DNA of 64,000 nt, taken from a virus. Lineage: Duplodnaviria; Heunggongvirae; Uroviricota; Caudoviricetes. Each line of letters starts with the position of its first letter. Positions within the stretch are counted from its first letter, which is position 1. The DNA lies in IMG/VR virus record IMGVR_UViG_3300032516_002776, positions 51,048 through 115,047 of that record, one strand, 5' to 3'. Below the pieces are notes generated by a model. That model was not told where the DNA came from and did no database searches. It was given only the letters and a program-made list of their open reading frames with translations. Positions 9,089 through 33,499 of this stretch are shown here, in pieces. Position numbers and translations under genes: made by a program.

Positions 9089-9366
9089 TATGTTTTTATT
9101 AAAACGCCTTCGTTATAGAAGGAGATGGAAGACTCTTTGATTTTATTTTTTATGTGTGGCATATAATTTGGCAAATTATCGGTTACTATTCTAACATATG
9201 TATTATTTGCATTTGTTCTTGCGCTTTCTTTTACTGCTGCTCCTTTACAGCCACACAATGTTTTATAATTTTCTACTAATTCAATGAAATTTGAAAATGG
9301 AGAAATTGATTCAAGGTTGGAATTTCTTATAAGACTACTAAACTCTGTAAAATTGTTAATGTTCAT
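9085..9366 (-). CDS. hypothetical protein
   Basis: Last gene of the minus-strand block. It converges on 8345..9088 with a 4-nt overlap. Confidence 0.4.
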   Translation of the reverse strand: MNINNFTEFSSLIRNSNLESISPFSNFIELVENYKTLCGCKGAAVKESARTNANNTYVRIVTDNLPNYMPHIKNKIKESSISFYNEGVLIKTY

Positions 9367-9697
9367 CTTTTAGTGTTTTCAATAAATAGTAAACAACTAA
9401 AGAGCTTATACAAACAATTGGAATATTAATAAAACAGCTAAATATTATACAAAATATTATAGATAACCACACAGATAAACAGACTGGGCACATTATTAGT
9501 CGAACAAAGAAGCAATCGTGGTATCTTTTTATAAAATGATGATAAGTCAATTCAAAGTTCTTTTTATATGCTTCATCAAATAGGTCTATTTTAAATAATT
9601 TTGATAGATGAAATAGACGGCAATATTCAACAAAAGCGTCGGTATCAAACCATATAATTAGAAGTAGGGTTATTAAAAATATTAGGGTTATAATCAT
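9356..9697 (-). CDS. hypothetical membrane protein
   Basis: 113 aa with at least three hydrophobic helices (ITLIFLITLLLIIWF; CPVCLSVWLSIIFCIIF; IVCISSLVVYYLL). Confidence 0.4.
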   Translation of the reverse strand: MIITLIFLITLLLIIWFDTDAFVEYCRLFHLSKLFKIDLFDEAYKKNFELTYHHFIKRYHDCFFVRLIMCPVCLSVWLSIIFCIIFSCFINIPIVCISSLVVYYLLKTLKDEH

Positions 9698-10929
9698 AAT
9701 AATTGTGAAGTAAAATAAATGTCATCCAATGTTATTAATTTCTTTTCGTAACTTTCCAACGAACCGATATAGAATTTAAATATATCATATTCCATATCTC
9801 CGATTACAGCGGATTCTGATAGAATATCAGGTAACATTTCAGTTATGATAAGAAATCTGTCTTGAGTTAAATTTTTCGCGTCAAAATCAATTAATACATA
9901 ATTTTGTTTATCATTATCATATGGTCTGATTTTGTTAGATAAATCGAATTTAGTATTTGGTTGGGTTTGGTTTATGTAATTATCATAATCACAATCAACA
10001 TATAAAGTTGAGAACCATGGCTCTAAATATTGTAATACATTTTCATTGCAATTTTTGACAATTACACCCACATCATATTTTTTCTTTACAATTGGATGTA
10101 AATATTCATCGTGCTTTACTCCAGACCCCCATTTTCTTATAAATTCCAATGTAGAATTATGCATTAAAATTTGCCAATCTTTTGATTTTTGTGAGTGATC
10201 TTTTGTCAAAACACCATGTTCAAACTGTCCACCTCTGCAAGTTAAGTGATAAACAAATGATTCCCAAGATTGGATTAAAGTATAACCATTTAATATCATT
10301 CGGTTAAATACATCGCTATCTTCTCTTGCTGATTTCATAATTGGATCATGCATTCCGATAATTTCAAAATCTTCTTTATACATCATCCACGGAGCAAAAC
10401 ATCCATTAGTAGTCTTACCTTTAAAATCTAATTTACATTGTTCAACAAATGCGTTGAATTCATTTTCTTTAAAGCCATCTTTTACATCAAGTTCCGGCCA
10501 CATACCGAAATCTTTTACTATTTTCTCTAATCCCTCAGGGTGTAAAGGCGGCTCAATTCTCGTGGAGCAAACAACTTTTCTTCTTTCAAGATATTTGTAG
10601 GCCTCTAAGTCGGCACCTTTCGCTAGCATCATATCTGCGTGAAAAATCATAAAAATATCTGTGGCAGAATTTCTAATACAATAATCATAAGCTTTTCCAA
10701 TTCCATATAAAGAATTATTTAAATCAGGATTGATATGGTAAGTTAAATTATACACATCTTTTACATTTTTTAACCAGTCAACTGTACCATCTGTATCTTT
10801 ATCAACAAAAATTGAAATGTCATGGTCATTTCTGTAAGAATTTTTTCGTATGGATTTTACACACGATTCAAGATAACGCTTGTTATTTTTTGATGGTATA
10901 CAAAATGTGATTTTTGGTATGTCTATCAT
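9694..10929 (-). CDS. glycosyltransferase family 2
   Basis: The N-terminal ITFCIPSKNNKRYLESCVKSI...DISIFVDKDTDGT pattern is typical of the GT-A/GT2 nucleotide-binding region. Confidence 0.5.
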   Translation of the reverse strand: MIDIPKITFCIPSKNNKRYLESCVKSIRKNSYRNDHDISIFVDKDTDGTVDWLKNVKDVYNLTYHINPDLNNSLYGIGKAYDYCIRNSATDIFMIFHADMMLAKGADLEAYKYLERRKVVCSTRIEPPLHPEGLEKIVKDFGMWPELDVKDGFKENEFNAFVEQCKLDFKGKTTNGCFAPWMMYKEDFEIIGMHDPIMKSAREDSDVFNRMILNGYTLIQSWESFVYHLTCRGGQFEHGVLTKDHSQKSKDWQILMHNSTLEFIRKWGSGVKHDEYLHPIVKKKYDVGVIVKNCNENVLQYLEPWFSTLYVDCDYDNYINQTQPNTKFDLSNKIRPYDNDKQNYVLIDFDAKNLTQDRFLIITEMLPDILSESAVIGDMEYDIFKFYIGSLESYEKKLITLDDIYFTSQLL

Positions 10930-11546
10930 ATATACGCCTTTAATGTTTTAGGTCTATCTGCTAAGTATTGATTGGCTTTTCCAATTGTAGGAATGTGTAT
11001 TTCCCAAACATTTAATTTTATATTATTATCATCTAAATACTTATAAATTTTTTTAGAAAGCTCTAGCGTGTGCGCATCAGATATTTTGTTGTCATGCCAT
11101 TCACCATGTAATTCTTTGATTAATTTTATAGAGCCGTCATTTATCATTTTATTTAATACTTCATATTCTGCGCCTTCAATGTCTAATTTTAGAATAACAT
11201 AATCTTGTTCAGTGAAAGTTTCTAATAACCATTTTGATAAATCTACACAAGGCACATTAATATATACAGATTCATCCAAGTTATTAATGGATTTTCCTAA
11301 CAAAGAAGAGCCATCGGTTATATCGGTTGATACATAAATTTTTTTGATATCATCGTTAATCCACACCGCGGCGTTTAGGATTTGTACAGTGTTATTGTTT
11401 TCATGAATTTCTTTTAATTGATTTGCTAAATAAGGAATTGGTTCAAAAGAAATTACATGTGTATTAACACCAAACCTTTGTTTTGCGGTAAGAATTGATT
11501 CTCCACAATGCGCACCACAATCTATAAAATATTTTTCATCGCTCAT
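10926..11546 (-). CDS. FkbM-family methyltransferase
   Basis: A YFIDCGAHCGESI glycine-rich SAM motif at the N-terminus, as in the FkbM family. 206 aa. Confidence 0.55.
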   Translation of the reverse strand: MSDEKYFIDCGAHCGESILTAKQRFGVNTHVISFEPIPYLANQLKEIHENNNTVQILNAAVWINDDIKKIYVSTDITDGSSLLGKSINNLDESVYINVPCVDLSKWLLETFTEQDYVILKLDIEGAEYEVLNKMINDGSIKLIKELHGEWHDNKISDAHTLELSKKIYKYLDDNNIKLNVWEIHIPTIGKANQYLADRPKTLKAYI

Positions 11547-12372
11547 AATTATTTATTTCATTTTTTATCCAATTTTCTATAGAATAATTAGGATTCCAAT
11601 TAAAATTTTGAATGCTATCGGTTATATAAAAATTAAATGATGGAGAATACATACCATCTTCGAAACAAAGTGTTGTGTCAGGCAAATACTTACAAATCAT
11701 ATTTGCCAATTCAATATTTGTAATTGATTTTCCTGATGCAGCTAAAACCATTGAATGATTATTGTTTTTAATAGAAATTTTATAACAAAGTTCGGTTAAA
11801 TCATCAATATGAAGATAATCTTGGCATCTATCTTTGTTTCCTATAATAGTAATTTTTTTATCAGTGATAGCAGCCTTTAATAAAATAGGCAGCAATGATT
11901 TTTTATCCATTCCTGTTCCGTAGATGTATGTTGGTCGAATTATTGTGTAATTTTCTTTTAACATTATTAAAAATTCTTGAGCCAATTTTGCCATTCCATA
12001 TTCTCTTGGATTATTATATGAACTATTAACATGTATAGTATCTTTATGCTCACCATATACCGCAGTGCTAGATATGAAAATAAGTTTTTTGTATCTTAGT
12101 TTAATACCAAAGGTTTGTAATAACGAAAGTTGATTAAGAAAATCTCTGTGGGAAGAATAATAATTTCCCATTGAAACAAACAAACAATCTAAATCAGACA
12201 TATGTGACCATTCCATAGAAGGAAATTTTTGTGTCGGACATAAAACACACTCTTTCGGTATGCTTTCATAATTAGTTTTATAAAATGCATATACTTTATG
12301 TCCTAATTGGATATATTTAAGGCATAGGTTTCTTCCTATGAAACCATTTGCGCCAATAACACCTATATTCAT
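11536..12372 (-). CDS. NAD-dependent sugar epimerase/dehydratase/reductase (SDR)
   Basis: Rossmann motif GVIGANGFIGRNL, SSTAVYG, and a catalytic YGMAK (YxxxK). Confidence 0.6.
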   Translation of the reverse strand: MNIGVIGANGFIGRNLCLKYIQLGHKVYAFYKTNYESIPKECVLCPTQKFPSMEWSHMSDLDCLFVSMGNYYSSHRDFLNQLSLLQTFGIKLRYKKLIFISSTAVYGEHKDTIHVNSSYNNPREYGMAKLAQEFLIMLKENYTIIRPTYIYGTGMDKKSLLPILLKAAITDKKITIIGNKDRCQDYLHIDDLTELCYKISIKNNNHSMVLAASGKSITNIELANMICKYLPDTTLCFEDGMYSPSFNFYITDSIQNFNWNPNYSIENWIKNEINNYER

Positions 12373-13370
12373 AATTGTATTGTGCTTCCTTTTAATTCTC
12401 CCTGCCGTTGTAGAGAACTAATAGCAGTATTACTTACGACAAGCTCATTCCAATATCTTAAAATCGTGAGCGGTTTAATATCAAATTCTGGTTCTTTTCC
12501 TTTTAATATAAAATCCGCTATCATCTTTGGTTCATTAAATCCGCAAAGTGTTCGTGCCGCAGTTGTTCCGGAGCACCTTGCATTTATTTCTATGATGAAT
12601 GGAACACCATTTCTTACTCTTAATTGTATGTTACACGCACCAAATGGCTTAATTGTATCAGCTATATTTTTTACGCACTTTTCTATAACAATATTGTGTT
12701 CCGAAAAGCACTTGTATGTGTCGCCATCTCGAAGAATCCTACGCATAACAATAACACCTTTACATTCATTGTTTAAGTTTATTGTTCCACAAGTATATTC
12801 ATCACCCTCAATGTATTCTTGAAGAATGAAATTGTCGATATTATCACCTATTTTAGCTAATATCAGTTTTAATTCGGTTTTATCCTTTACCAAAAATACA
12901 TTTTGTGATCTAGCTCCACCAACCATTTGTTTAATGATAACAGGAAATTCTACATTTTTTGCCTGACTAAGAGGAAAGGTAAATGGAAATTTTCCCGCAA
13001 CATTTCTATCTAAAGAATCATACATATATTGTTTATCATTAGATAATTTAATTACATTTGGATTACTAACTATTACCGTTGTTCCTATTGCTTTAAATGC
13101 ATCTACATTTAGGGATAATGTTTCTAATTCGGCGTCAAGACCAGGAAATAGTAAAGAAATACCTTCTTTCTTACAAATGCCTAATAAAACTGATATGTAA
13201 TCAGGCTTATTAACAAATGGTATTAAATAAGAATTTGGTACTGCATATAATCCTGTTGCAAGAGTTTCACCATCTAATGCAATAATGTCATAGTCGGTAT
13301 TATACAAAGACTTTATGATGCTTTGACCAACACCGCCACCGGCACCAGTAATCGCAATTTTATGTGCCAT
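12369..13370 (-). CDS. ATP-grasp domain protein (sugar-modifying ligase candidate)
   Basis: The glycine-rich loop and the PVIIKQMVGGARSQNVFLV / IEGDEYTCG segments resemble ATP-grasp enzymes. Confidence 0.5.
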   Translation of the reverse strand: MAHKIAITGAGGGVGQSIIKSLYNTDYDIIALDGETLATGLYAVPNSYLIPFVNKPDYISVLLGICKKEGISLLFPGLDAELETLSLNVDAFKAIGTTVIVSNPNVIKLSNDKQYMYDSLDRNVAGKFPFTFPLSQAKNVEFPVIIKQMVGGARSQNVFLVKDKTELKLILAKIGDNIDNFILQEYIEGDEYTCGTINLNNECKGVIVMRRILRDGDTYKCFSEHNIVIEKCVKNIADTIKPFGACNIQLRVRNGVPFIIEINARCSGTTAARTLCGFNEPKMIADFILKGKEPEFDIKPLTILRYWNELVVSNTAISSLQRQGELKGSTIQL

Positions 13371-13372
13371 AA

Positions 13373-13999
13373 TTATTTATAAACCTCAAATTTGCTTAAA
13401 TCGGGGTATGGCAATTCTAAGTCATCATTACATTTTTTACTTCCGTCAATATTGTAAAATTGCTTTATAAGAAGAAGGCCGCGCGCCGATAACTCAGGCA
13501 TCATATAAAAATTCCAACCTAACATATCAAAATAATCTTCGTGGTAAGAACATTCTCTTCTTCCTGAAAATCTTGCTCGTTTAAACCAAAAGTATGCGGT
13601 TTGACTATCTGTTAAAATAGCACCACCTTTTGATAGTTTAAAATGTTTGTAGGGACCAGTAAAAGACAGGCACATGTAACTTTTTGGTATATACATATCT
13701 GCTGTAAATCTAAGTGCGGAATCCCATACATTTGTCGGCTCTAATTGATATGCTCCTTTTAATGTAGTTCCCACGACAGGTTTAAATTTGACCTTGGCAC
13801 CAGCATGAATAATTTCACAGGGAACAGAAGGATAAGTTCGAGAGGGAATTGTAATTTCTTTACCTTTAACATTTTCATATGTTAGTGCTAAAAATAAAGC
13901 GTTGCTAGCATTATCTATAGTTATAACATAAGGCGCGCCGGTATAATCTGCTAGTTCTTTCTCGAATTCTTCGGTTATTTTATGTACATTATTGGCCAT
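13373..13999 (-). CDS. DegT/DnrJ/EryC1-like aminotransferase, unusually short (208 aa)
   Basis: FEKELADYTGAPYVITIDNASNALFLAL matches the DegT N-terminal block. CLSFTGPYKHFKLSKGGAILTD matches the PLP-lysine block FSFHxTKxxTTGEGGxxxTND. The protein is about half the normal length. Confidence 0.45.
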   Translation of the reverse strand: MANNVHKITEEFEKELADYTGAPYVITIDNASNALFLALTYENVKGKEITIPSRTYPSVPCEIIHAGAKVKFKPVVGTTLKGAYQLEPTNVWDSALRFTADMYIPKSYMCLSFTGPYKHFKLSKGGAILTDSQTAYFWFKRARFSGRRECSYHEDYFDMLGWNFYMMPELSARGLLLIKQFYNIDGSKKCNDDLELPYPDLSKFEVYK

Positions 14000-14002
14000 A
14001 GT

Positions 14003-14224
14003 TTATTCTTCATTAAAAACTTCTATGCATAAAACTTTATTGTCGTTTATCATAAGCATAGAGCCATCTTTTCGTTTCATTTTTGTAAATTGACCCTGTT
14101 TAATTCCTTCTGTACAGATTCCTGTATATGTTCTTTTAATACCACCATCAAAATGTATTATTTGCGTAACATATTTTCCCTGTTCATAGACCGACGAATT
14201 TAAATTGACAATTTTTTTAAGCAT
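14003..14224 (-). CDS. hypothetical protein
   Basis: 73-aa ORF inside the operon. Confidence 0.35.
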   Translation of the reverse strand: MLKKIVNLNSSVYEQGKYVTQIIHFDGGIKRTYTGICTEGIKQGQFTKMKRKDGSMLMINDNKVLCIEVFNEE

Positions 14225-14258
14225 ATATTTAATAATATAACATTTATTTGGTTGTTGG

Positions 14259-15152
14259 TCAAGACATTAAACTATTTTTAATATTATGTAATTCTTCGGA
14301 AACCTTTGCAAAAACATCATTTGTTTTTGATTGTGCTTTGAATGTAATATATTTAGTCCAAAATTGATGTGCATGCCAATACTTTCTATCTTCTTGTATA
14401 ATGCAGTTTTTAATTATATATTGTGGTATATTATACTTTCCAGAAGCATTCATCATTTTAAATTTTTCTTGTTGAAATAGGTCTATATGGCGAAAGTCTC
14501 CTATGCTTTCTGGCAATTTCATAAGTTTTGTTAGCTCCTTTGAATGAAAATTAAACCAACCTCCAGCGAATTTGGTGTCATAGTTTTTTAATAAAGAAAT
14601 TTCCTGTAAATTTATTTTTGTTTCTAATTCAAATACATTAATATCATCGAAGCTAACTGGAGAATTTACATATTCTTCTGAACTTATGACATTCCAAGAT
14701 GCGTCCCAAAATTTGGCGATTTGTGGGGTGATCATATATGTCAATGTTTCTTTTTCTATTGTTGGAATAATGTTTTCTAAAACATGCAAAATTTCTACAG
14801 GAAAATATATGTCTGGGTCTAACCAAATTAAATTATATTCTCCGTTGTTATTGTTTAAAATTCTTCGTTGATGTTCTCCAGAACCTTTTATATCATCATT
14901 GATTTCAAAATTTACTTCTTTACAAAAATCACAATGTTTTTCAATGTATCTAAATTTATCAACAAAAAACTCCTTTGGTAATTTACAATTATCCCAATCA
15001 AGTTTATCATCGGCCATATTAAAAACTATGTCCAGACTCAAATACTTTTTGGTGTCGGAATAATTAGCCGCTCTTTTTAATTGATAAATTGTTCTTTCCA
15101 ATAAATCAATGTGAAATGGGAATATAAAATATACTATTTTTGTTTTATCCAT
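14259..15152 (-). CDS. hypothetical protein (glycan cluster)
   Basis: 297 aa, co-oriented in the cluster, with no motif I can name confidently. Confidence 0.4.
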   Translation of the reverse strand: MDKTKIVYFIFPFHIDLLERTIYQLKRAANYSDTKKYLSLDIVFNMADDKLDWDNCKLPKEFFVDKFRYIEKHCDFCKEVNFEINDDIKGSGEHQRRILNNNNGEYNLIWLDPDIYFPVEILHVLENIIPTIEKETLTYMITPQIAKFWDASWNVISSEEYVNSPVSFDDINVFELETKINLQEISLLKNYDTKFAGGWFNFHSKELTKLMKLPESIGDFRHIDLFQQEKFKMMNASGKYNIPQYIIKNCIIQEDRKYWHAHQFWTKYITFKAQSKTNDVFAKVSEELHNIKNSLMS

Positions 15153-15153
15153 G

Positions 15154-16032
15154 TTAAACCTTTCCTATTTGTAACAATTTATTAATCAAGATGTTTTTCT
15201 TTTCTGGAGTACTTTCCAATTCAGTATAGGAAGCGTCTAAAAACGGAGCATAACTTTTACAAATTTCTCCACCATGCAACAATTTTAATTTGTCTTTCCA
15301 CTTTAAATTATGTACAACGATTGCATGTATTTCTTCATCACTCCATGTAAATGGGATGTCCAACCCGAAAGAGCCACCATCGTCGCCATAACCTACAACA
15401 ATGACTTTTTCAAATCCCATATACCACAATAATTGAAATATAATTCCTGATACGTTTCCTCCAGGATGAAATTTTAGTGGATTTGTTCCATATTCATCCA
15501 CAGAGGATTGAATGTAAGTACTTAAAACAGGATAAGATTGCCCACTGTTTATATCTCTGTGCTCTATACAAAGATAAGTATTTGGAACTTGCCTGCAATA
15601 TTCTTCACCGTGAAATTTATATAACTGTCCCGTTGTGAATATCCAATTATAGCAAGGAAGCTCATTGCATGCTATTATTTTTATTAGATTTGGATTTTGT
15701 AATATTATCTCCCGCTTTCCCTCTATCCAAATAGGAGCATCGTCAAATCTAAAACTAGCTTTGTCTCTTAACATAAAATCTCCACCAATGTATTTATGTA
15801 AAAAAAACGATTTATCTTCAAAATATTCCCGAGCAATACTATTATCAGCGGTAAGATATAAATCACAATTTGGATAGATTTTTATGTTACGATTTACGGT
15901 AACAGTAAAATTATTTTTGATAATTTCTTGAAGATTGTTTACATTTTTTGTGGATGGTCCACCTAAAATACAAAACGCAGTATTACTATTGGCAATATCT
16001 TTCCATTGTGAATTTATATAATAATTTTTCAT
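15154..16032 (-). CDS. hypothetical protein (possibly MAF/DUF115-like)
   Basis: 292 aa. The ILGGPS and VIVVGYGDDGG glycine motifs are loosely reminiscent of motility-accessory-factor glycosyltransferase domains. The assignment is weak. Confidence 0.35.
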   Translation of the reverse strand: MKNYYINSQWKDIANSNTAFCILGGPSTKNVNNLQEIIKNNFTVTVNRNIKIYPNCDLYLTADNSIAREYFEDKSFFLHKYIGGDFMLRDKASFRFDDAPIWIEGKREIILQNPNLIKIIACNELPCYNWIFTTGQLYKFHGEEYCRQVPNTYLCIEHRDINSGQSYPVLSTYIQSSVDEYGTNPLKFHPGGNVSGIIFQLLWYMGFEKVIVVGYGDDGGSFGLDIPFTWSDEEIHAIVVHNLKWKDKLKLLHGGEICKSYAPFLDASYTELESTPEKKNILINKLLQIGKV

Positions 16033-16779
16033 TTAGTTTTTTGAAAGTTTGTCGAGCAAAGCAGATATGTTATTGTCTTGTTCGTTTATTTTGGTTATCA
16101 ATTTTTTTGTTTCTGTTGGTGCGTGGGTGACAGCTATGCGCAGAATATCCATCCAATTAACATTATTTTTCGTTCGAGCGGCTTCAATGTCATTTATAAT
16201 TTCTAAATCTGTTTCATTATTTTTCATATTATTTAAGTATTCTTTTATGTTTATATCCCAATTTTTTATGTTGGATGGTAAATCTACCAATTTGTGATAT
16301 GTCCCAATACCCTCTTGTTTTTTTGGGATGATATTACAATGTAATAACGCCTGATAATTTTCTTTGAATAAATTTTCAATTTCATTTCTTAATCTATTAT
16401 ATGTTTTACGGAAAGTGTTTTCGCTTTCTTCGAATATTATTTTCTTTTGAACTAATATGTCTCCTGTATCTATACCCCTGTCTAAAATATGTATAGTAAC
16501 TCCCGCCGGAGTAGATTCGTAAAATGACCAAAAATTAGGATTCGTGCCTCTATTATATGGTAAATAACTTATATGTAAATTAATTATTTTATTTTTAAAT
16601 TGTGAAATTACATCTTCTTTTATAATATGTTTATATCCATAACTTATAATAAAATCAAAGTTTTTAGATTCTTCTGGGGTTATTTTATCTTTTCGCTGAA
16701 CTATATTGTAATCATGGTCTCGCAAAAACTTTATAAGGCAAGTTTCGGATTCATTGTAACCTAAAAATAATATTTTCAC
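16033..16779 (-). CDS. formyltransferase (sugar N-formyltransferase candidate)
   Basis: NLHISYLPYNRGTNP matches the formyl_transf motif HxSLLPxxRG. It uses a GTG start overlapping the upstream stop (GTGA). Confidence 0.6.
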   Translation of the reverse strand: MKILFLGYNESETCLIKFLRDHDYNIVQRKDKITPEESKNFDFIISYGYKHIIKEDVISQFKNKIINLHISYLPYNRGTNPNFWSFYESTPAGVTIHILDRGIDTGDILVQKKIIFEESENTFRKTYNRLRNEIENLFKENYQALLHCNIIPKKQEGIGTYHKLVDLPSNIKNWDINIKEYLNNMKNNETDLEIINDIEAARTKNNVNWMDILRIAVTHAPTETKKLITKINEQDNNISALLDKLSKN

Positions 16780-22544: not shown

Positions 22545-22548
22545 ATTA

Positions 22549-26450: not shown

Positions 26451-27154
26451 ATGTTACTTTTTATTGGCACTAAATCACAACCATAGTTCGGAGTCTGATA
26501 GCTAATCATATCATTTCTTATCCACAAAGAATCACACTGCCATCCCCAATCTACAAAATTTAATAAAGTAAATCCGTTTTGTGATAAAAATATACATGTA
26601 TCTTGAAATACATCTTTTTGACCTTCAAATGATAAGCCTCTTTCATTCTCTACTTGAACACTTTTTATTATAGATATTTTGTTACCAAACCCCTTTAATA
26701 CTTCTAATGTAAATCCCTCTACATCAATTTTACACAAATCAATTGATTCAATTTGATAATGATTTATAAAACTATCCATTCTCATCGTATCTGCTTCAAC
26801 TTCTATAAAATCGGTTGGTGATAAGTTAACTTTCTTTTTGAAAGATGAAGAACCTGGCTCTGTTCGCGAACAATTAAATGTTTGTTTTCCTGTTTTATCA
26901 GATATAGCTATATTAAAATTATTAAATCCACTGTGATTCTTTTCTAAAATAGGAAATATATATGGATTTGGTTCAAAACAGAATACATTTGCGGGATCTA
27001 TATCAAAACATTCTCTTAAATATTCTGCATCATTTCCATTGTTAGCACCAATTTCAAATACATTTTTGGGTTGTATTTTTGTTCTTTGTGTAATGAAATT
27101 TGGATATAAGTCTATTTCAAATCTCATAGGTCCCTTATATTTAAATTCTCCCAT
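26447..27154 (-). CDS. FkbM-family methyltransferase
   Basis: The VFEIGANNGNDAEYL motif. It is a paralog-type repeat of the 10926..11546 product. Confidence 0.5.
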   Translation of the reverse strand: MGEFKYKGPMRFEIDLYPNFITQRTKIQPKNVFEIGANNGNDAEYLRECFDIDPANVFCFEPNPYIFPILEKNHSGFNNFNIAISDKTGKQTFNCSRTEPGSSSFKKKVNLSPTDFIEVEADTMRMDSFINHYQIESIDLCKIDVEGFTLEVLKGFGNKISIIKSVQVENERGLSFEGQKDVFQDTCIFLSQNGFTLLNFVDWGWQCDSLWIRNDMISYQTPNYGCDLVPIKSNI

Positions 27155-27156
27155 GA

Positions 27157-28032
27157 TTATATCTCCTCCATTTTGTTTCTTACTATATCAGCCACATCTA
27201 TTGCTCTTATAGATTCCGCTACGCTTTTGTTGTAACTGGTTTTATAATAGTGTTTATGTAGCAATGGTGATATAACTTTAGTTACGATGCCATAATCTTC
27301 TATTTCCCATGGAGATGTGCAAGTAAACATTGTTATACATGGTATTTTATGTGCGATGCATACATGCATCGGTAAACTATCGCTGCATATTACAAGTTTG
27401 TGGCCTGTTAAATCCGCTATATATTGTTTAATGGTTTTTCTTCGTTTTAAATAGTTGATTTTATATCCATAAACTTCTAATATACTTTCCAATTCTTTCA
27501 TATGTGCCCAATTTTTAGTTGGCCAAACAGAACTATCTGATATTACCATTCCTATATCTCCTGCAAATTTTCTATCAGATACATTATATGTTGGTTTATA
27601 ATACTTTTCACCATTAAATTTCTTTCCAACCATCGTTGCAACAATCTCTTGATAAGATCTTCTATTGGAAAATTTTATTGCATCCGATGTTTCTTTTCCT
27701 AACACGCTAATTCGGCTCATATTAAACCATTCTGATGAATCTAAAGTATATGTCAAAACCTTTTGATTTAATAGATATGGACCTATATAAGAATCGGCTT
27801 TAATACCACTTGTTGCCGATACAAATATATTTTTATCTTCTTCTAAATTAATAACCAAATCATAATGTTTGGAATCATATTGCTTAGGATTAGTATATAC
27901 AATTCCATCAACCAAACAAGCATTTTCTTTAGTGGTAAACCAATGAATTTCATCCTTGCTAAGCAATTTTGATAAAAATGTGGTTCTTAGAACATCCCCT
28001 GATGCTCCCGTCTTTATTATCAATATTTTCAT
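27157..28032 (-). CDS. glycosyltransferase family 9 (heptosyltransferase-like)
   Basis: MKILIIKTGASGDVLRTTFLSKLL matches the GT9 N-terminus MKILVIRxxxLGDVLxTTP. Confidence 0.55.
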   Translation of the reverse strand: MKILIIKTGASGDVLRTTFLSKLLSKDEIHWFTTKENACLVDGIVYTNPKQYDSKHYDLVINLEEDKNIFVSATSGIKADSYIGPYLLNQKVLTYTLDSSEWFNMSRISVLGKETSDAIKFSNRRSYQEIVATMVGKKFNGEKYYKPTYNVSDRKFAGDIGMVISDSSVWPTKNWAHMKELESILEVYGYKINYLKRRKTIKQYIADLTGHKLVICSDSLPMHVCIAHKIPCITMFTCTSPWEIEDYGIVTKVISPLLHKHYYKTSYNKSVAESIRAIDVADIVRNKMEEI

Positions 28033-28724
28033 TATCTTGTAACTTTATAACCCTTGTTCTCTTCAACTGTGAACAATTTATTATAACGCAAATTTGTTTC
28101 CATTTGCTTTTCCATCGTCTTTCGATGATACAACGCAAGTTCTTCTTCTTTCGGAAGATGTGCGAATGTTTTATGCCCAATGATTTTTTCATGTAAGCGC
28201 CCTTCCCATTTTATATTAGGCAAGTTTTTGAAAATTCGTGTTTGATAATCGCCTCCATTCCAATTTACCCATTTACCAGGATTATTTATATCCCACCCCC
28301 ACATTTTTGCATGCTGTTCTGTAACGCCCTCATACATATTTATTCGTGGAATCCAAAACAATTCTGTTGCTGGATTTTCTTTTAATATATCCGGCAAGTC
28401 TTCTAAAAGCGATTCTGCTGGTAATTCATCAGCATCAATTTGAAAGATATATTCTCCCTTACAAAGTGATTTGCCATAATTCTTGTGTTCTCCGTAATTA
28501 TTGTTTAGAGCGTGTTGATGGACTGTAAAATTTGGTTTTAATGTCATTGGATGTACAACAGAACATTTGCTTAATACTTCCTTCGTATTTATATCATCAC
28601 TAAAGTCATCCAATACAATGATTTCACCATCTGTATTATATTTGCATAACAAAGATAGTAAATCTTTTAATTGTTTACTTTCATTGTGACATGTGACCAA
28701 ATAACTTATAAATGGATTATTCAT
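28032..28724 (-). CDS. glycosyltransferase family 2
   Basis: YLVTCHNESKQLKDLLSLL and the DxD-like VLDDFSDD. Its first 29 nt are duplicated 661 bp upstream. Confidence 0.55.
   Translation of the reverse strand: MNNPFISYLVTCHNESKQLKDLLSLLCKYNTDGEIIVLDDFSDDINTKEVLSKCSVVHPMTLKPNFTVHQHALNNNYGEHKNYGKSLCKGEYIFQIDADELPAESLLEDLPDILKENPATELFWIPRINMYEGVTEQHAKMWGWDINNPGKWVNWNGGDYQTRIFKNLPNIKWEGRLHEKIIGHKTFAHLPKEEELALYHRKTMEKQMETNLRYNKLFTVEENKGYKVTR
28696..28724. repeat. 29-bp perfect direct repeat, copy A (ACCAAATAACTTATAAATGGATTATTCAT)
   Basis: Identical to 29359..29387. Copy A is the start codon plus the first 9 codons of the GT2 gene (minus strand). Confidence 0.8.
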
Positions 28725-28726
28725 GA

Positions 28727-29332
28727 TTATTTCTTAAATATAATAAATTTATACATTCCTTTTCCTGCTCCCCAATAAGATTCTAAATTTGTATTGTTGT
28801 TTATTTCAATATACTCTTTAGTTTTTGTGTTATAAACAAATGGTTTGAATTTTTTGTCTAATACATCTGATATCAATTTTTTCCAAAATAATTTTCCCAT
28901 GGGTGTATGAGATTCGTCGGATGATATGAATTCATAATTTTTTAATATATATTCTAATATCCAATATCTAGCCAATCCAAATGTATGTTTTTCTTGCCAT
29001 ATGTTTTTTGAAGATATACCAATTTTATTATCTATTTTTATTTCTTCAAATTCATGAATTAAAGCAATGTGGGATTGTTTTTCAACTAATAAATTCATAA
29101 AAATCATACCATCTTCAATTGTTTTGTATATTCTAAAATTTTGCTCTCCGTTTTTAAATATCCCAATTAATTTATCTCGTTTTTCTATTTTTTCTGCTTC
29201 TCTTCTGTTTAAAACAGGATCTGAATCGAATCGGTTTAAAAATTGTGGGACATCGCTTGGGGATTCTATCATAAGATTTGATATACCATATATTTCTTTT
29301 ATGTATTTTTTATAATTTAATTTATTTTTCAT
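28727..29332 (-). CDS. hypothetical protein (201 aa), flanked by 29-bp direct repeats
   Basis: The whole ORF lies between the two repeat copies, so it looks like an inserted cassette. No recognisable catalytic motif. Confidence 0.45.
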   Translation of the reverse strand: MKNKLNYKKYIKEIYGISNLMIESPSDVPQFLNRFDSDPVLNRREAEKIEKRDKLIGIFKNGEQNFRIYKTIEDGMIFMNLLVEKQSHIALIHEFEEIKIDNKIGISSKNIWQEKHTFGLARYWILEYILKNYEFISSDESHTPMGKLFWKKLISDVLDKKFKPFVYNTKTKEYIEINNNTNLESYWGAGKGMYKFIIFKK

Positions 29333-29358
29333 TTCTTTATTTTATATTTCCAGATATA

Positions 29359-29387
29359 ACCAAATAACTTATAAATGGATTATTCAT
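29359..29387. repeat. 29-bp perfect direct repeat, copy B
   Basis: Identical to 28696..28724. On the minus strand it encodes MNNPFISYLV followed by 6 divergent codons and a stop, which is a gene-start fragment. Confidence 0.8.
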
Positions 29388-29388
29388 A

Positions 29389-29622
29389 TTACTCTTTAAT
29401 CTTTACAAAATGATGCTCGACGGTTAATGGCGCAACACAACTAAACTTTTCTGTGTAGAGATATTCACCGTCGATGGTGACACCATCCCCATATAGACTA
29501 CCCTCACCGGTATCAAGAGCATCTGCTATATGTTTTACAATTCTTTCTTGCTCTTGATTAGTTGGCTGTCTATCCAATTCTATTGTAACAATTATATCTA
29601 ATTTCATGCTCATATTATACAC
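29389..29622 (-). CDS. hypothetical protein
   Basis: 77 aa. It overlaps the upstream gene by 8 nt. Confidence 0.4.
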   Translation of the reverse strand: MYNMSMKLDIIVTIELDRQPTNQEQERIVKHIADALDTGEGSLYGDGVTIDGEYLYTEKFSCVAPLTVEHHFVKIKE

Positions 29623-30937
29623 TGCTACTTATTGGTAACACAATTTGTGGGTTAACTATTTTCTTTAGTTTTGGTAATATGATTTTTTGCTCCGTGGGAA
29701 ATTCTGGTATATATTTGTCCAAGAGAGCATGAAATGCTTTGTCCATTTGTAACAAACTAAACTTTTCCATGTTTTCTACACGAAGATTTTCAGCCTTTTC
29801 GAGCAATTTTTCATAATTATCAATCAAACCCTTCATCTTTCTTCCGGCTTGTTCGTAATTTACATTAAACCATCCGGCTTCTCTTATAAGCCACTCATTT
29901 GCTGATTCTGGTGGAATCTGCTTTATTTCTCCAGTTAATAAATTTGTATATTGTGGATTTAAAAAGTCAAGGTGGCCACTCCAATTTGATGCTAAGATAG
30001 GCTTTCCACTTAATGATGCTAATAGTAATGGATGACCATAACCTTCTCCGTGAGTAAAATTGACATGTGCTTTAATTTTTTTATGATTATACAGATAATT
30101 CATCTCAGCGTCGGTTAGATCGCCATGTAAAAGATATATTTGTGGTAAATTGTCTCCACCCACTTCTTTTTTGATTCTGTCAATCTTATCTAGTATTTCA
30201 TATTTGTCTATTTTAGAAAATGATACACCGCTTGTCTTTAAGACTAGAGCGGGTTTCTTCTTTTCATCTCTAAATGTAGTTAGGAAAGTTTTTATCAGAT
30301 TTCCTATGTCTTTTCTGTCGTTATAAAGACCGGCGTTATGTGTCCATTGACCAACAAAAAGAAAACAAAAATCTTCTTTTATTGCATCTAACACGACATC
30401 AACACTATTAATTTTTTCGTCTACTTTTTTATAAACCTCTGTATTTGCTCCCCAAAATAAAACTTCCATTGGTTTTGTTGATTTTAAATCTTCTGATTGT
30501 CCTGTCTGATTAAATGTTTTCTTATATGATGTCTTTAAAAAAACATCCTTGACAAAATTACTTAACACAAAATTGACATCCATTTTATTAAGTCCTTCAA
30601 TCCATTCTGGCTTAGGAACAGTGGTTTCAATACCTGCCGTCATTCCTATGTTTACTTTACCAACGCCATTAAATTCGTTTGGTATGCTTATTTGTATATA
30701 AACTTCTGGTTGCTTAGGTAATGGTCCCCTTAATATTTGATTAAATAAAAGTTTTTCTTGCTCATCTTCTAAATCATCAATAGAATGCTTTGTTGGACAG
30801 CCACCCCATCGTGTTGGCACTATTTTTAAATCAAATTTATCATAACGCAATAAAGATTTAGCAATAGCCATACTCCAATCACCATAACCACTTCTTGTAA
30901 ACAACGCGGATTGTAAAATGCAAACAGGTTTATTCAT
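29615..30937 (-). CDS. GT-B fold glycosyltransferase (GT4-like)
   Basis: The C-terminal HGEGYGHPLLLASLSGKPILASNWSG matches the GT4 nucleotide-sugar-binding block EGFGxxxlEAMAxGxPVIASxxGG. Confidence 0.5.
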   Translation of the reverse strand: MNKPVCILQSALFTRSGYGDWSMAIAKSLLRYDKFDLKIVPTRWGGCPTKHSIDDLEDEQEKLLFNQILRGPLPKQPEVYIQISIPNEFNGVGKVNIGMTAGIETTVPKPEWIEGLNKMDVNFVLSNFVKDVFLKTSYKKTFNQTGQSEDLKSTKPMEVLFWGANTEVYKKVDEKINSVDVVLDAIKEDFCFLFVGQWTHNAGLYNDRKDIGNLIKTFLTTFRDEKKKPALVLKTSGVSFSKIDKYEILDKIDRIKKEVGGDNLPQIYLLHGDLTDAEMNYLYNHKKIKAHVNFTHGEGYGHPLLLASLSGKPILASNWSGHLDFLNPQYTNLLTGEIKQIPPESANEWLIREAGWFNVNYEQAGRKMKGLIDNYEKLLEKAENLRVENMEKFSLLQMDKAFHALLDKYIPEFPTEQKIILPKLKKIVNPQIVLPISSSV

Positions 30938-30939
30938 AT

Positions 30940-31233
30940 TTATTTTCCAATTTTTTCATCCATAACTCTAACATAAGAGGACTCGACTTTTAAATTTATA
31001 TCTGCTTTATGCTCTGTTATAGGTTCTTTATCAACCATCATATAGAATATCATTCCAATCTTGTGTGGAGATTTAAATTCGTCAAGTTGGTTACTAATTC
31101 CCGCTTTAGAAAAAAGAGAACCTGTAGAATTTGTTGTATCATTTCGAATACTTTCCACTTCTTTTGTTATATTGTAAAAATATTCCACTAATTCTTCTTT
31201 TGTGCCTTCAATTATTTTTTTCTCATTAATCAT
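30940..31233 (-). CDS. hypothetical protein
   Basis: 97 aa, operon-internal. Confidence 0.35.
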   Translation of the reverse strand: MINEKKIIEGTKEELVEYFYNITKEVESIRNDTTNSTGSLFSKAGISNQLDEFKSPHKIGMIFYMMVDKEPITEHKADINLKVESSYVRVMDEKIGK

Positions 31234-32207
31234 ATCTTTATTTCCTTTATTTGTTTTTCTATTTCTTCTGTGTTAATTTTTGGTATATCAAATCCCATAC
31301 TATCAAATGGCATTTTATGACCCACATGTTCAGCGTTAGTATGTAAACTAAAGCGTGTGGTTGGTTCAAAATTCTCAAGAGTATAATCCATGCCCTTTAT
31401 AAATTCTTCACACATATGCGGTGCATTAATATTGCCCTCATTCAATGCCCAGCGTCTGCCTTCTAAACCACATTTTTCTCTCTGTTCCTTAGGCATCAGA
31501 TACCAATACATAATTGCTTCCGCGACATCTTCCCACTTACACACATCATCAAAAATATATGGTGTTGGCGGCGAACCTTGAATATAACGGGTTGAAGGCC
31601 ACACCGGTTTTGCCCAAACTCCACATTTCTTATATTTTCCTACATTATTAGTTCCAAAATTATAATCAAATTCAACGGGCTTACCATCATCATCTATTTG
31701 ACCAATTTGGTCTTGTAAACCGCCAGTAACATTAACAATGACGGGAACGCCAGCCATTATAGATTCTCCGCAGGACAACCCAAATCCTTCATTGGAAGAA
31801 ATATTTGCGGTAACATCGGCTAAATTATACAAAAGATTCATTGCTTCTGGTAAAAACTTATCTTCAGTTACGACAATAGTATAATCGGGTGATAATGCTG
31901 AATGAACAACTGGCAAATCTGTGCCTGCATCCAATATTTTTTCTGTGTGTAATACTAATGCACACTTAGACGCTTGCTCTTTTGTAAGATTATCACAGAA
32001 TGCACGAAATGCTAACATTAATTGGGCCGTTCGTTTTCTGTTAATGTTTCGGCTGTTATAAAATACAACAAAATCATAACTTTTATTCCCAAACATTTTC
32101 TTTTTCATTTCAATAAGTTTTGGGTCGGTTTTATGTATTGGTTTAAAAACCTTCGGATTAATTCCGTGGGGCAAATATTGTAATAAGTGTTTTCCTTTTA
32201 TTGGCAT
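31230..32207 (-). CDS. GT4-like glycosyltransferase, C-terminal domain only
   Basis: It starts with a GT4 inter-domain linker (LPHGINPKVFKP) and contains SNEGFGLSCGESIMAGVPVIVNVTGG. No N-terminal Rossmann domain is present. Confidence 0.5.
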   Translation of the reverse strand: MPIKGKHLLQYLPHGINPKVFKPIHKTDPKLIEMKKKMFGNKSYDFVVFYNSRNINRKRTAQLMLAFRAFCDNLTKEQASKCALVLHTEKILDAGTDLPVVHSALSPDYTIVVTEDKFLPEAMNLLYNLADVTANISSNEGFGLSCGESIMAGVPVIVNVTGGLQDQIGQIDDDGKPVEFDYNFGTNNVGKYKKCGVWAKPVWPSTRYIQGSPPTPYIFDDVCKWEDVAEAIMYWYLMPKEQREKCGLEGRRWALNEGNINAPHMCEEFIKGMDYTLENFEPTTRFSLHTNAEHVGHKMPFDSMGFDIPKINTEEIEKQIKEIKI

Positions 32208-32218
32208 ATATAATTCCT

Positions 32219-32722
32219 TTAATCTAACGGCGCTTGTTCATTTTCAAGCTCTTCTACAAAAAACTCATTGATTGAACTTCTTTCTTCTTTTGTCAATGGA
32301 GTTTGTTTTGGAAATTTATCCAAGACATCTTTGAAATCCTTAGAAATTTCAATAAATGTGGTCTTATCTGTCTCACAAAACATTTTTTCAATTTTTATGT
32401 ATAATTTATCTGGAAACTCCTTCAAATAATAATCGAATGCTGGACAAAACCAAGCAACTAAATTTGTTTTTTCACATACATAATATGCACCAATCTTTAA
32501 TCCTTCAGGATTAACCTTTGTAAAGATAGTATCATAAGCAGGAATTTCTTCGGCTGAAAATAGAAAATTTACAATTGTTATTTTTTGGTCATTAATCATT
32601 TTATCAATTATGACAGGAAATCCAAAAGGCAATGCTTCTTCTTTGACACCCATGTACATGTCATCAAAAGACCAACCTTTATTGTGTCGGTATAACTGAA
32701 TTTTATGTGTGTTGTTATTCAT
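32219..32722 (-). CDS. hypothetical protein
   Basis: 167 aa. It lies between the two halves of the split GT-B. Confidence 0.4.
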   Translation of the reverse strand: MNNNTHKIQLYRHNKGWSFDDMYMGVKEEALPFGFPVIIDKMINDQKITIVNFLFSAEEIPAYDTIFTKVNPEGLKIGAYYVCEKTNLVAWFCPAFDYYLKEFPDKLYIKIEKMFCETDKTTFIEISKDFKDVLDKFPKQTPLTKEERSSINEFFVEELENEQAPLD

Positions 32723-32957
32723 GAATTTTTTTAGGATAAACTTCCCATGTTTTTAGTGTTTTATCTCCTAAAATTATACTTGCTTGTATTTTATTATTGA
32801 TGTCGTCTGTCTCCATAACAAGTTTTAAATCAGGAAGCAGTCGTTCATATTTTTCTTCTTCATATACAATATTAATATCCTTTATATCTACAACTGTATT
32901 TCCACACCGTACAAACGAACCTGCTGCTGGTCCCCATTTATCTATTTTCTTTTTCAT
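32715..32957 (-). CDS. hypothetical protein
   Basis: 80 aa. Confidence 0.35.
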   Translation of the reverse strand: MKKKIDKWGPAAGSFVRCGNTVVDIKDINIVYEEEKYERLLPDLKLVMETDDINNKIQASIILGDKTLKTWEVYPKKIHE

Positions 32958-33493
32958 TTTATAATCTTTCCATGCTCATCGTATTCGCCTTCAATAGTCC
33001 GACAATTTTCAGGTCGCAGAACCCATTTATTAATATTATAAGTTTGCTTACTAATACTAAACAATGTGTCACAGCTCTCATAAAATGGCCGATTCCACAT
33101 CGGATAGGGAATGTCATCCCAAATATTTAAATAAGTAATCGGTATTTTCGTTCTGATTTTTCTCTCTAAAATATATAACCAATGCCAATAACGCGGGTCG
33201 GTAAAATGTAACAAAGCATTCGGCTTTTCAATATTCATTACTGCCATCAATATATCTTCATTGCCATAACCATCCGTAGGATATAGTTTCAAATATGCAT
33301 CACTTACACCGGTTTCCGCTTCAACTGCTTTTGACATATCTATAACTTTGCCTGTTTCTGGATGCTTAACACTTCCGGCAATTTGTACCCAATCATAATG
33401 ATGGATTGTTCCAAATACAAGTTCCTTGCTTTGTGCTGCTATTCCAGAAAAAAAGCGTATGTCATCTGCTAGTAATAGTATTTTCTTTTTCAT
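32954..33493 (-). CDS. GT4-like glycosyltransferase, N-terminal domain only
   Basis: MKKKILLLADDIRFFSGIAAQSKEL... resembles the Glyco_trans_4-like N-terminal domain. 179 aa, with no nucleotide-binding C-domain. Confidence 0.4.
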   Translation of the reverse strand: MKKKILLLADDIRFFSGIAAQSKELVFGTIHHYDWVQIAGSVKHPETGKVIDMSKAVEAETGVSDAYLKLYPTDGYGNEDILMAVMNIEKPNALLHFTDPRYWHWLYILERKIRTKIPITYLNIWDDIPYPMWNRPFYESCDTLFSISKQTYNINKWVLRPENCRTIEGEYDEHGKIIK

Positions 33494-33499
33494 AATTTA

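Follow-up and report, generated by a model that had tools for sequence, protein, structure and literature searches.

A putative nonulosonic acid biosynthesis cassette within a conserved glycan locus of an uncultured tailed phage

Described nonulosonic acid systems and the phage locus

On many bacterial surfaces the outermost sugars, and those that bear charge, are nonulosonic acids (NulOs), which commonly serve as phage receptors and immune decoys. Glycan and lipopolysaccharide (LPS) gene islands are, in turn, known in large phages. We consider here one such island, positions 9694..33493 of a 64,000-nucleotide stretch of DNA (the window, by which we mean the whole stretch analysed) from a tailed virus of the class Caudoviricetes (IMG/VR record IMGVR_UViG_3300032516_002776, positions 51,048 to 115,047). 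A first-pass annotation had read it as a phage-borne pathway for a NulO of the pseudaminic/legionaminic acid (Pse/Leg) class, with transferases, embedded in a glycan island. That proposal survives the two tests on which it was said to stand or fall: the core enzyme calls hold against curated family models, and the DNA is that of a phage rather than a fragment of a bacterial chromosome.

The closest characterised routes are the Pse pathway of Helicobacter and Campylobacter (PseB-C-H-G-I-F) and the Leg pathway (LegB-C-H-G-I-F), including the sps genes of Bacillus subtilis. The island resembles the former in its FlaA1/PseB-like dehydratase, its NeuB synthase and a cytidylyltransferase whose best match is PseF, but differs from it in having no DegT-type PseC, no GNAT-type PseH and no PseG, with a class-III aminotransferase plus oxidoreductase and a formyltransferase present instead. 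On the Leg side, the synthase scores slightly higher on TIGR03569 than on PseI and is nearly as close to SpsE, whereas the dehydratase matches LegB at only 41.5 bits, and there is neither a LegG/NeuC 2-epimerase nor a nucleotidyltransferase for GDP-GlcNAc. Two kinds of NulO transferase provide further points of comparison. Tanf_01245/BFO_1060 of Tannerella forsythia, a genetically proven Pse/Leg-derivative transferase, is described as soluble and GT-B/TagB-like, and it carries an HP motif (PMC5420450); the window gene 23564..24703 is like it in fold, motif and NulO-gene neighbours, while its family scores lie far under the cut-off. Relative to Maf, the flagellin NulO O-glycosyltransferase (PDB 5mu5), the Maf-like protein of the window is half the size and has none of the flanking domains. 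The window carries no flagellin gene, and we know of no flagellin in Flavobacterium, should that be the host.

Three described systems bear on individual features of the island. The Lake Biwa viral genome LBVG_26, for which neuA, neuB, neuC, capD, pseA, pglC and pglD are listed only (bioRxiv 10.1101/655167), is likewise from an uncultured phage, in that case of fresh water, and is reported to have a NulO cluster; compared by its description, it differs in its NeuC and in its DegT/PglD-type enzymes. In Legionella pneumophila Sg6/12, a HemL-like class-III aminotransferase lies beside the cytidylyltransferase in a cluster that also has DegT and PseG (PMC3694923); unlike the window, this is a bacterial surface-polymer (O-antigen) system with ABC export. 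The spike glycan of HRPV-1 VP4 is capped with 5-N-formyl-legionaminic acid and has a role in adsorption (PMC6137143), a precedent for an N-formylated NulO on a virion protein, although there the sugar comes from the archaeal host and not from the virus. Our search of the literature on phage-encoded NulO pathways found one passing mention, that of Lake Biwa, and no analysis of such cassettes, no Maf-like or BFO_1060-like phage transferases and no biochemical work. Phage NulO clusters as such have thus already been mentioned; the testable features of the present one are its aminotransferase swap, its consistently missing hydrolase and its phage-borne nonulosonate transferases.

Core enzymes and their recurrence across viral and cellular loci

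We judged enzyme classes by Pfam gathering scores and finer identity by NCBIfam equivalog cut-offs. The NeuB, PseB-like and cytidylyltransferase calls all pass the curated Pfam thresholds, and the classes assigned to the core enzymes are secure. These genes, like all other island genes named below, lie on the minus strand. The NeuB-family nonulosonate synthase (18187..19158; Pfam NeuB, 231.9 bits) has two invariant histidines, H195 and H216, 21 residues apart, and is labelled legionaminate synthase by the Joint Genome Institute. Its NCBIfam scores are 293.3 bits on NeuB_NnaB (TIGR03569; cut-off 399.65) and 254.5 bits on PseI (cut-off 340.25), and its relatives in the PDB are PseI (165.6 bits), SpsE of B. 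subtilis (160.6) and NmNeuB (135.7). The PseB-like UDP-GlcNAc (UDP-N-acetylglucosamine) 4,6-dehydratase (22549..23571; Polysacc_synt_2, 252.5 bits) has PseB as its best NCBIfam match (255 bits, cut-off 407.75) and Helicobacter pylori FlaA1/PseB (2gn4, 213.5 bits) as its nearest solved structure; the FnlA/CapE group comes next, with PglF much more distant. The cytidine monophosphate (CMP)-nonulosonate synthetase (19967..20665; CTP_transf_3, 43.8 bits) is very divergent: its best NCBIfam match, PseF, aligns over the full length at 37.8 bits (cut-off 205.7), and a sequence search found no relative of it in the PDB. Since these equivalog cut-offs are missed, substrates and stereochemistry are a matter of inference and the sugar is placed in the Pse/Leg class as a whole, with a Pse-like (inverting) entry step somewhat favoured.

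Four further enzymes appear to belong to the module. A class-III (HemL-like) aminotransferase (21279..22559; Aminotran_3, 180.4 bits), whose nearest structures are glutamate-1-semialdehyde aminomutases, is accompanied by a Gfo/Idh/MocA oxidoreductase (19155..19970; GFO_IDH_MocA, 46.5 bits); we infer that the aminotransferase replaces the sugar 4-aminotransferase PseC/LegC. A formyltransferase (16033..16779; Formyl_trans_N, 66.5 bits; NCBIfam dTDP-4-amino-4,6-dideoxyglucose formyltransferase, 62.3 bits) has a PIG-L/LmbE N-deacetylase (16776..17429; PIG-L, 66.1 bits) on one side and the Maf-like gene on the other, at a distance of two genes from NeuB. Conserved beside NeuB in 28 of 60 related loci, it is probably a sugar N-formyltransferase that takes the role of the PseH/LegH acetyltransferase. 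The core of the cassette forms a chain of overlapping open reading frames (ORFs), namely 18187..19158, 19155..19970, 19967..20665, 20662..21282, 21279..22559, 22549..23571 and 23564..24703, so that the stop of the last overlaps the start of the dehydratase gene.

Read together, these genes would convert UDP-GlcNAc to a CMP-activated 5,7-diamino-3,5,7,9-tetradeoxy-nonulosonic acid of the Pse/Leg class. The PseB-like 4,6-dehydratase, whose class is established, would open the route; the resulting 4-keto sugar would then probably be aminated by the class-III aminotransferase with its obligate Gfo/Idh/MocA partner, where a DegT enzyme usually acts, and N-acylated by the formyltransferase, with PIG-L perhaps allowing the original N-acetyl group to be exchanged. 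After release of the free hexose, a step to which no gene is assigned, the NeuB-family synthase would join the hexose to phosphoenolpyruvate and the cytidylyltransferase would activate the product with CMP, both steps again matching established classes. Methylation may follow, and a Maf-like enzyme, a BFO_1060-like GT-B enzyme or both would transfer the sugar, with the other glycosyltransferases predicted to build or prime the acceptor.

The earlier description of this pathway as complete does not hold, because the nucleotide-release step has no assigned gene and no core enzyme reaches its equivalog cut-off. The same annotation had recognised no NeuC/PseG-type enzyme and no N-acetyltransferase, and on this point Pfam, NCBIfam and tblastn concur. 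No island ORF matches PseG, NeuC, Glyco_tran_28 or Epimerase_2; Pfam and NCBIfam find no GNAT in the window, nor is there a homologue of the GNAT present in 25 related loci; and, as to PseC, tblastn finds no full-length DegT, the only DegT-like gene coding for a 208-residue protein of a short family. Two small GT-B proteins (27157..28032 and 24700..25581) are candidates, from their sequences, for a possible UDP-sugar hydrolase.

Searching with a NeuB subfamily profile yielded 78 viral loci, of which about 58 have a NeuB 50-76% identical to that of the window, and the ORFs of 60 viral loci were clustered for counts of cassette genes. The core is well preserved: all 60 encode NeuB, 56 encode the cytidylyltransferase and 54 the PseB-like dehydratase. 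The aminotransferase, in contrast, comes in two mutually exclusive forms, with DegT only in 40 loci, class-III only in 17, both in none and neither in three (Fisher p = 3e-12, uncorrected for relatedness). The full-length DegT of the related loci scores 125 bits in Pfam. On a neighbour-joining tree of NeuB, loci of the two types are intermingled at about eight places, and each locus with the class-III enzyme (17/17) also has the Gfo/Idh/MocA oxidoreductase. We take this pattern as pointing to non-orthologous replacement at the PseC/LegC step. The acylation genes behave comparably, the formyltransferase occurring in 28 loci, a GNAT in 25 and one or the other in 43 of the 60; PIG-L, found in 17 loci, is always with the formyltransferase (17/17). 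The window type is therefore defined by the class-III aminotransferase, oxidoreductase, formyltransferase and PIG-L, with no GNAT. A Maf-like or BFO-like gene is found in 45 of the 60 related loci.

Close NeuB relatives are rare outside uncultured viruses. Across 185,579 species genomes, only nine NeuB loci are at least 55% identical to that of the window, the remainder reaching at most 42%. Two of the nine, the top 'bacterial' matches, on GTDB contigs of Flavobacteriaceae metagenome-assembled genomes (MAGs), are 99-100% identical to an IMG/VR viral contig (L009 and L010 against L105 and L106); they are phage DNA binned with bacteria and do not speak for a bacterial origin, which urges caution in counting 'bacterial' homologues and serves as a weak clue to the host. 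A third belongs to a Bacteroidia MAG, on a contig of 7 kb, and the remaining cellular relatives are in MAGs of Oligoflexales, Alphaproteobacteria (including Hyphomicrobiales) and Parachlamydiales. Related partial arrangements occur in bacteria: in a Massilia MAG the oxidoreductase-aminotransferase pair adjoins NeuB, and Syntrophomonas wolfei combines PIG-L-NeuB-formyltransferase with a class-III aminotransferase. Among cultured phages, three records contain a NeuB homologue, none of them more than 30% identical, and in PHROGs there is no family into which the NeuB, cytidylyltransferase, oxidoreductase, Maf-like or BFO-like proteins fall.

Two side observations concern these related viral loci. 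Four IMG/VR contigs (L088, L116, L124 and L127) carry two NeuB-family genes, one of them shorter (about 276 residues), and often a second cytidylyltransferase, which suggests that such phages make two different nonulosonic acids. Further, an ORF of about 215 residues (cluster c14, e.g., L099:11582-12226) recurs just downstream of the cassette in 20 related viral loci. The one representative tested gave sub-threshold HNH/NUMOD1 matches of the homing-endonuclease kind, and such an ORF could help explain the shuffling of modules between DegT and class-III versions.

Transferases, the outer frame and the phage that carries them

At least eight transferases had been claimed for the island, and hidden Markov model searches bear this out with about ten glycosyltransferases (GTs), the GT2 family passing its Pfam gathering score three times. 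Two proteins are of most interest as the enzymes that might place the NulO on its acceptor, and both stem from ORFs that the first-pass annotation had left unassigned and offered as possible sources of the missing hydrolase or acetyltransferase, a suggestion that we set aside; they are best read as nonulosonate transferases. The first, 23564..24703, is a GT-B protein and a candidate CMP-nonulosonate transferase of the BFO_1060/TIGR04396 type. It has the traits of that type, namely a GT-B/TagB-like fold, an HP motif ('YYRPHPSE' at residues 213-220, with 'PHP' at 215-217), no membrane segment and NulO-gene neighbours. Its AlphaFold2 model (predicted local distance difference test score 92.6) has UDP-GlcNAc 2-epimerases and TagF/TarL as its top Foldseek matches. 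We therefore considered it as the missing NeuC/LegG; it also has three conserved carboxylates spaced in what we take to be the manner of the epimerase catalytic residues. That idea was dropped in view of the HP motif and of the family as a whole, of which 16 of 40 members match BFO_1060_trans (best E 5.8e-12) and 10 of 40 TIGR04396, against one of 40 for NeuC (E 0.012), the BFO_1060 matches of these relatives all being far under the 200-bit NCBIfam cut-off. The second, 15154..16032, is a candidate CMP-nonulosonate transferase of the Maf/sialyltransferase fold, with an MptE-like/DUF115 catalytic domain whose fold is sialyltransferase-like and whose Pfam MptE-like match is under the gathering score. 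It is adjoined by a 297-residue protein (14259..15152) that has no Pfam, NCBIfam or PDB match, profile search included; its DxD-like motif (consensus 'WLDxDxIF') suggests that it may be a GT-A transferase, and, of the 8 loci carrying its homologue, 7 have it next to the Maf-like gene.

The remaining glycosyltransferases fall partly into an outer frame, a conserved locus of this phage group that consists of GT480 (split here), GT436, a GT2, a short DegT and a terminal GT2. Flavobacterium phage immuto (vB_FspM_immuto) has at the corresponding place a PD-(D/E)XK nuclease, a GT of 480 residues, a GT of 436 residues, a small ORF and a GT2, and, at the locus end, a 214-residue 'transaminase', a PglD-like acetyltransferase, an epimerase and a GT of 396 residues. 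The window follows the same order (nuclease-GT480-GT436-GT2 ... short DegT ... GT2), with identities to immuto of 37% for the nuclease, 44-52% for GT480, 43% for GT436, 36% for the GT2, 74.5% for the short DegT and 41% for the terminal GT; with Microcystis phage Mel-JY01 it shares the upstream part of the locus (nuclease, GT480, GT436, GT2). Neither isolate has a NeuB homologue, and immuto also has none of the PseB-like dehydratase, the cytidylyltransferase or the Maf-like gene, whereas the window has about 14 kb of additional genes in the middle of the frame. Given the shared frame and the absence of NeuB from both isolates, the island is therefore to be seen as a conserved phage glycan locus into which a NulO cassette and extra transferases have been inserted at about 14.2-28 kb. 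Furthermore, on each of five other viral contigs the nuclease-GT480-GT436 trio adjoins an unrelated NeuB gene (33-35% identical).

GT480 is a single protein of about 480 residues in immuto and in many viral contigs and is divided in the window. Its N-terminal half (32954..33493, 179 residues) corresponds to residues 13-185 of relatives of about 479 residues and is 52% identical to residues 13-170 of immuto gp181. Its C-terminal half (31230..32207, 325 residues), with the Glycos_transf_1/GT4-type donor domain (PF00534, 37.4 bits), aligns to residues 174-473 of intact relatives and is 44% identical to gp181. Between the halves lies an insert of about 0.75 kb (32219..32957) with two small ORFs of 80 and 167 residues, which have no homologue in 160 loci and only a sub-threshold DUF6717 match. 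The split falls at the domain boundary with no GT sequence lost, and the Mel-JY01 homologue likewise consists of two ORFs (190 and 302 residues), although these are adjacent; the divided protein may work as a two-subunit GT-B enzyme. Consequently, the three 'GT4-like' ORFs counted earlier reduce to two genes, two of the ORFs being halves of one. The other gene is GT436 (29615..30937; GT-B, GT4-like), which belongs to phrog_2170 glycosyltransferase, is related to immuto gp180 and, at 39% identity, to its Mel-JY01 counterpart, and is found in 36 related viral loci; its Glycos_transf_1 score of 23.0 is under the gathering score. Next come the frame GT2 (28032..28724; PF00535, 52.8 bits; gp178 in immuto) and, at the far end, the terminal GT2 (9694..10929; Pfam, 45.1 bits; gp169 in immuto). 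Inside the frame are another GT2 (25578..26450; PF00535, 36.2 bits), present in 26 related loci; the GT9-like GT-B protein 27157..28032 (291 residues), which matches PF01075 at 30.3 bits over its C-terminal 55 residues only, with weak heptosyltransferase matches; and the RXYLT1_C-like putative glycosyltransferase 24700..25581 (PF24785, 41.9 bits). These last two have no homologues in related loci, each being unique to this phage among them.

Three SAM (S-adenosylmethionine)/FkbM methyltransferases had been reported, and all three are confirmed: a class-I SAM methyltransferase (17426..18190; Methyltransf_25/12/11), with a weak match to the Pse-associated methylase TIGR03587 (24.3 bits), and two of the FkbM type (26447..27154, PF05050, 62.9 bits; 10926..11546, Pfam, 56.4 bits). 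To these we add a probable fourth SAM-dependent methyltransferase, 20662..21282, which has no Pfam match; it carries an 'FGCANGRD...GFDI' motif, and the PDB matches of its family profile are all SAM methyltransferases (E 0.003-0.04). At the left end of the island lie a short SDR (short-chain dehydrogenase/reductase) epimerase/dehydratase (11536..12372; Epimerase, 69.8 bits; weak dTDP-glucose 4,6-dehydratase and LegB matches), an ATP-grasp ligase (12369..13370; PRK12767.1-1 type, 280.3 bits, above the NCBIfam cut-off of 218; Pfam PylC-like_N and ATP-grasp matches) and the short DegT-derived protein (13373..13999, 208 residues; DegT, 56.4 bits). The DegT match covers residues 9-73 only, corresponding to profile positions 26-91. 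That the latter is a broken gene continued by 14003..14224 was considered and rejected: 415 library representatives at E <= 1e-10, mostly of 196-230 residues, define a family of an approximately 205-residue type, and, at 74.5% identity to the intact immuto gene gp172, it is by a wide margin the best conserved of the shared island genes (36-52% for the others). The earlier assignment of these three genes to the NulO pathway is in doubt. The short DegT and the last GT2 are common to immuto, which has no NeuB homologue, and we suspect from this sequence evidence that the left end is a second amino-sugar sub-module and not NulO tailoring. The ATP-grasp and SDR genes themselves have no immuto homologue, the short DegT being followed in immuto by its acetyltransferase and epimerase instead, and these neighbours are not detectably homologous.

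The island as a whole is an unbroken minus-strand run of tightly packed ORFs from 33493 down to 9694, most of them overlapping their neighbours by 1-11 bases. Its G+C content is slightly lower than that of the remaining window (0.30 vs 0.33), and a change in the sign of the GC skew coincides exactly with it, in agreement with the operon-like block first described. The block contains fewer genes than the 'about 45' given for it: the span 9694..33493 holds 31 non-nested ORFs of 70 residues or more, and 34 lie in the whole run of 9085..33694, including three small ones at its ends. The run opens with a 64-residue ORF (33500..33694), and a TATAAATA motif is found at 33742..33749, about 45 nt upstream of it. 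This T4 late-promoter motif is not enriched in the window (18 found, 18 expected), and scans for sigma-70 promoters and terminators are likewise at chance level, so that they are uninformative on the timing of expression; a tRNA search of the window found none. A 100-residue ORF on the plus strand (33774..34076) between the nuclease and the island has an N-terminus, 'GYLYIITN...KIGTT', that by eye resembles a GIY-YIG/T5orf172 homing-endonuclease-type domain.

That the window derives from a phage and not from a bacterial chromosome is clear from its T4-type replication genes and its viral relatives. The flanks of the island encode a T4-type family-B DNA polymerase (36267..38789; phrog_262, 543 bits), a clamp loader (phrog_168, 245 bits), a helicase (phrog_62, 160 bits) and a 748-residue virion protein with a lysozyme/transglycosylase domain. 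An identical NeuB protein is present on a contig of 204,840 bases, and related cassettes sit in IMG/VR viral contigs beside PhoH and UvsX/RecA genes. At the DNA level the window has no similarity to cultured phages, its closest isolates being Mel-JY01, whose polymerase is 40.5% identical, and immuto. We infer a member of Flavobacteriia as the host from several clues, each weak alone: the kinship with immuto, the Bacteroidota-type transferase, the viral contigs binned in Flavobacteriaceae MAGs and a G+C content of about 31%. The closest polymerase is that of a cyanophage.

Other genes of the window deserve brief mention. DNA-modification and anti-defence genes flank the island, namely QueC of the 7-deazaguanine pathway (3481..4239), two Mom-family genes (7615..8352 and 39434..40237) and a DruA-like gene (8345..9088), and the PD-(D/E)XK nuclease lies near it at 34295..35203. 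The relative immuto replaces all G in its DNA by formyl-preQ1; homologues of its DpdA, QueD, QueE, QueF and FolE are absent from the 64-kb window. In the window phage, Mel-JY01 and immuto alike, no more than a few kb separate the glycan locus from the DNA polymerase gene (about 9 kb in immuto). The immuto polymerase is of family A (NC_055915, 37898..40231), whereas those of the window phage and Mel-JY01 are of family B, which agrees with the polymerase-swapping papers that cite immuto. A GDP-mannose 4,6-dehydratase (60517..61788), 27 kb from the island and matched in two stretches as if carrying an insertion, hints at a second deoxy-sugar pathway at the right end of the window. A GMP reductase (50497..51486) is also encoded; Mel-JY01 has such a gene as well, there adjoining its glycan locus.

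Acceptor, rival readings and significance

We favour, with a probability of roughly 0.55, the view that the island is a phage-encoded, wholly cytoplasmic NulO cassette set in a conserved frame, with a virion protein as our guess for the acceptor. No island protein has a predicted membrane segment, the sole exception being a 113-residue ORF (9356..9697) just past the left edge, and no flippase, polymerase, ligase or initiating phosphoglycosyltransferase is found within 9694..33493; hence, the chemistry of the island should all be cytoplasmic. Virion proteins as the acceptor are a tentative choice, to which we give somewhat less than an even chance, the lipid-linked surface glycans of the host following closely. 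A phage-borne acceptor is favoured by the conservation of the frame glycosyltransferases in phages of both Bacteroidota and Cyanobacteria hosts and by the occurrence of the GT480/GT436 pair beside unrelated NeuB genes as well. A fuller version, which we regard as rather unlikely, has an N-formylated sialic-acid-like sugar made with three of the six canonical enzymes bypassed and moved by a mini Maf-type transferase onto the phage's own virion proteins. Within that bypass, the class-III aminotransferase with the oxidoreductase would take the place of PseC, the formyltransferase that of PseH and some activity other than the GT-B proteins that of PseG.

A number of points weigh against the favoured view. 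The pathway has a gap, as a PseG/NeuC-type nucleotide-sugar hydrolase is absent both from the window and from the annotated gene clusters of its relatives, and the synthase, dehydratase and cytidylyltransferase all fall under their equivalog cut-offs. To our knowledge, class-III aminotransferases are not known as sugar 4-aminotransferases, and the pathway as proposed gives no defined role to the Gfo/Idh/MocA oxidoreductase. The main argument against a simple swap comes from Legionella, where the HemL-like enzyme, DegT and PseG occur together, so that a tailoring role fits there better than replacement. As to the transferases, the window's own 23564..24703 protein matches TIGR04396 only (E 0.0017), with no BFO_1060 match, and the Maf-like 15154..16032 has 292 residues against 632 in a real Maf protein with its flanking domains. 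Nothing in the sequence identifies the acceptor, and the island lies among replication and DNA-modification genes, not structural genes. Finally, the host call depends on one cultured relative at about 36-75% protein identity and on viral contigs in Flavobacteriaceae MAGs.

The same cassette might instead act on the host, its soluble transferases capping, on the cytoplasmic side, the lipid-linked precursors of O-glycan, LPS or capsule for export by host flippases and ligases, so that repainted receptors block superinfection or stop progeny from sticking to debris. The characterised Tanf_01245/BFO_1060 enzymes do cap a lipid-linked glycan, the general protein O-glycan of a member of the Bacteroidota (PMC5420450), the island includes a GT9/heptosyltransferase-like gene, the Lake Biwa neuABC cluster has been explained in this way, and the distance of the island from structural genes and its nearness to the two Mom-family ORFs and the DruA-like ORF would accord with such a role. 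However, in the absence of flippase, polymerase, ligase and initiating transferase, export would depend on the host throughout, and the frame glycosyltransferases are common to phages whose hosts, from different phyla, have differing envelopes. Moreover, Maf-fold enzymes in the cases known glycosylate proteins directly. We therefore hold the host surface to be possible, if on the doubtful side. It is improbable, in our estimate, that the cassette makes no 5,7-diamino sugar by itself, either because it boosts or diverts a NulO pathway of the host and draws on the host hydrolase, or because the oxidoreductase or an SDR reduces the 4-keto group toward a different 9-deoxy acid, leaving the class-III aminotransferase to make no more than a tailoring group. 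The absence of a recognised PseG/NeuC from the window and from the annotated clusters of the 60 relatives, the coexistence of HemL-like genes with DegT in the Legionella NulO clusters and the fact that aldehydes and amino acids are the substrates of the enzymes structurally nearest to the aminotransferase would all suit this alternative. Yet a tailoring role is hard to square with the strict exclusion of DegT and the interleaving on the NeuB tree; loci keep exactly one aminotransferase type beside the dehydratase (though three of the 60 have neither).

Modification of the phage's own DNA bases by the sugar pathway and transferases is the least probable of these alternatives, and to a degree that makes it barely credible, even though QueC, the Mom-family genes and the PD-(D/E)XK nuclease flank the island and the preQ1 in immuto DNA is formylated by an enzyme of PF00551. 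The DNA of immuto contains dA, dC, dT and fdPreQ1 only, with no glycosylated nucleoside, despite the same frame glycosyltransferases. We likewise rejected the window formyltransferase as a counterpart of the immuto preQ1 formyltransferase DpdN, to which it is only 28% identical over 78 residues, with a different context amid NulO genes. We know, moreover, of no nonulosonic acids on DNA.

Several leads come from these observations. The aminotransferase swap supplies a testable function for unexplained HemL-like genes in bacterial NulO clusters, such as that of Legionella; an enzyme still to be discovered is suggested by the hydrolase that is consistently missing; and for glyco-engineering with Pse/Leg-type sugars, the Maf-like and BFO_1060-like proteins, being small, offer compact candidates. 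Phage- or virus-encoded glycosylation of virions is known so far for mycobacteriophages and giant viruses. Were the target the virion, this capacity would be extended to acidic nine-carbon sugars, and the fuller version with N-formylation and Maf-type transfer would, if true, represent the first phage-encoded 'sialylation' of a virion. Were it the host envelope, the cassette would amount to a lytic-phage form of seroconversion. In either case, its presence in at least 60 uncultured viral contigs and in almost no cultured phage implies that viruses are a sizeable reservoir and vector of nonulosonic acid pathways in aquatic systems.

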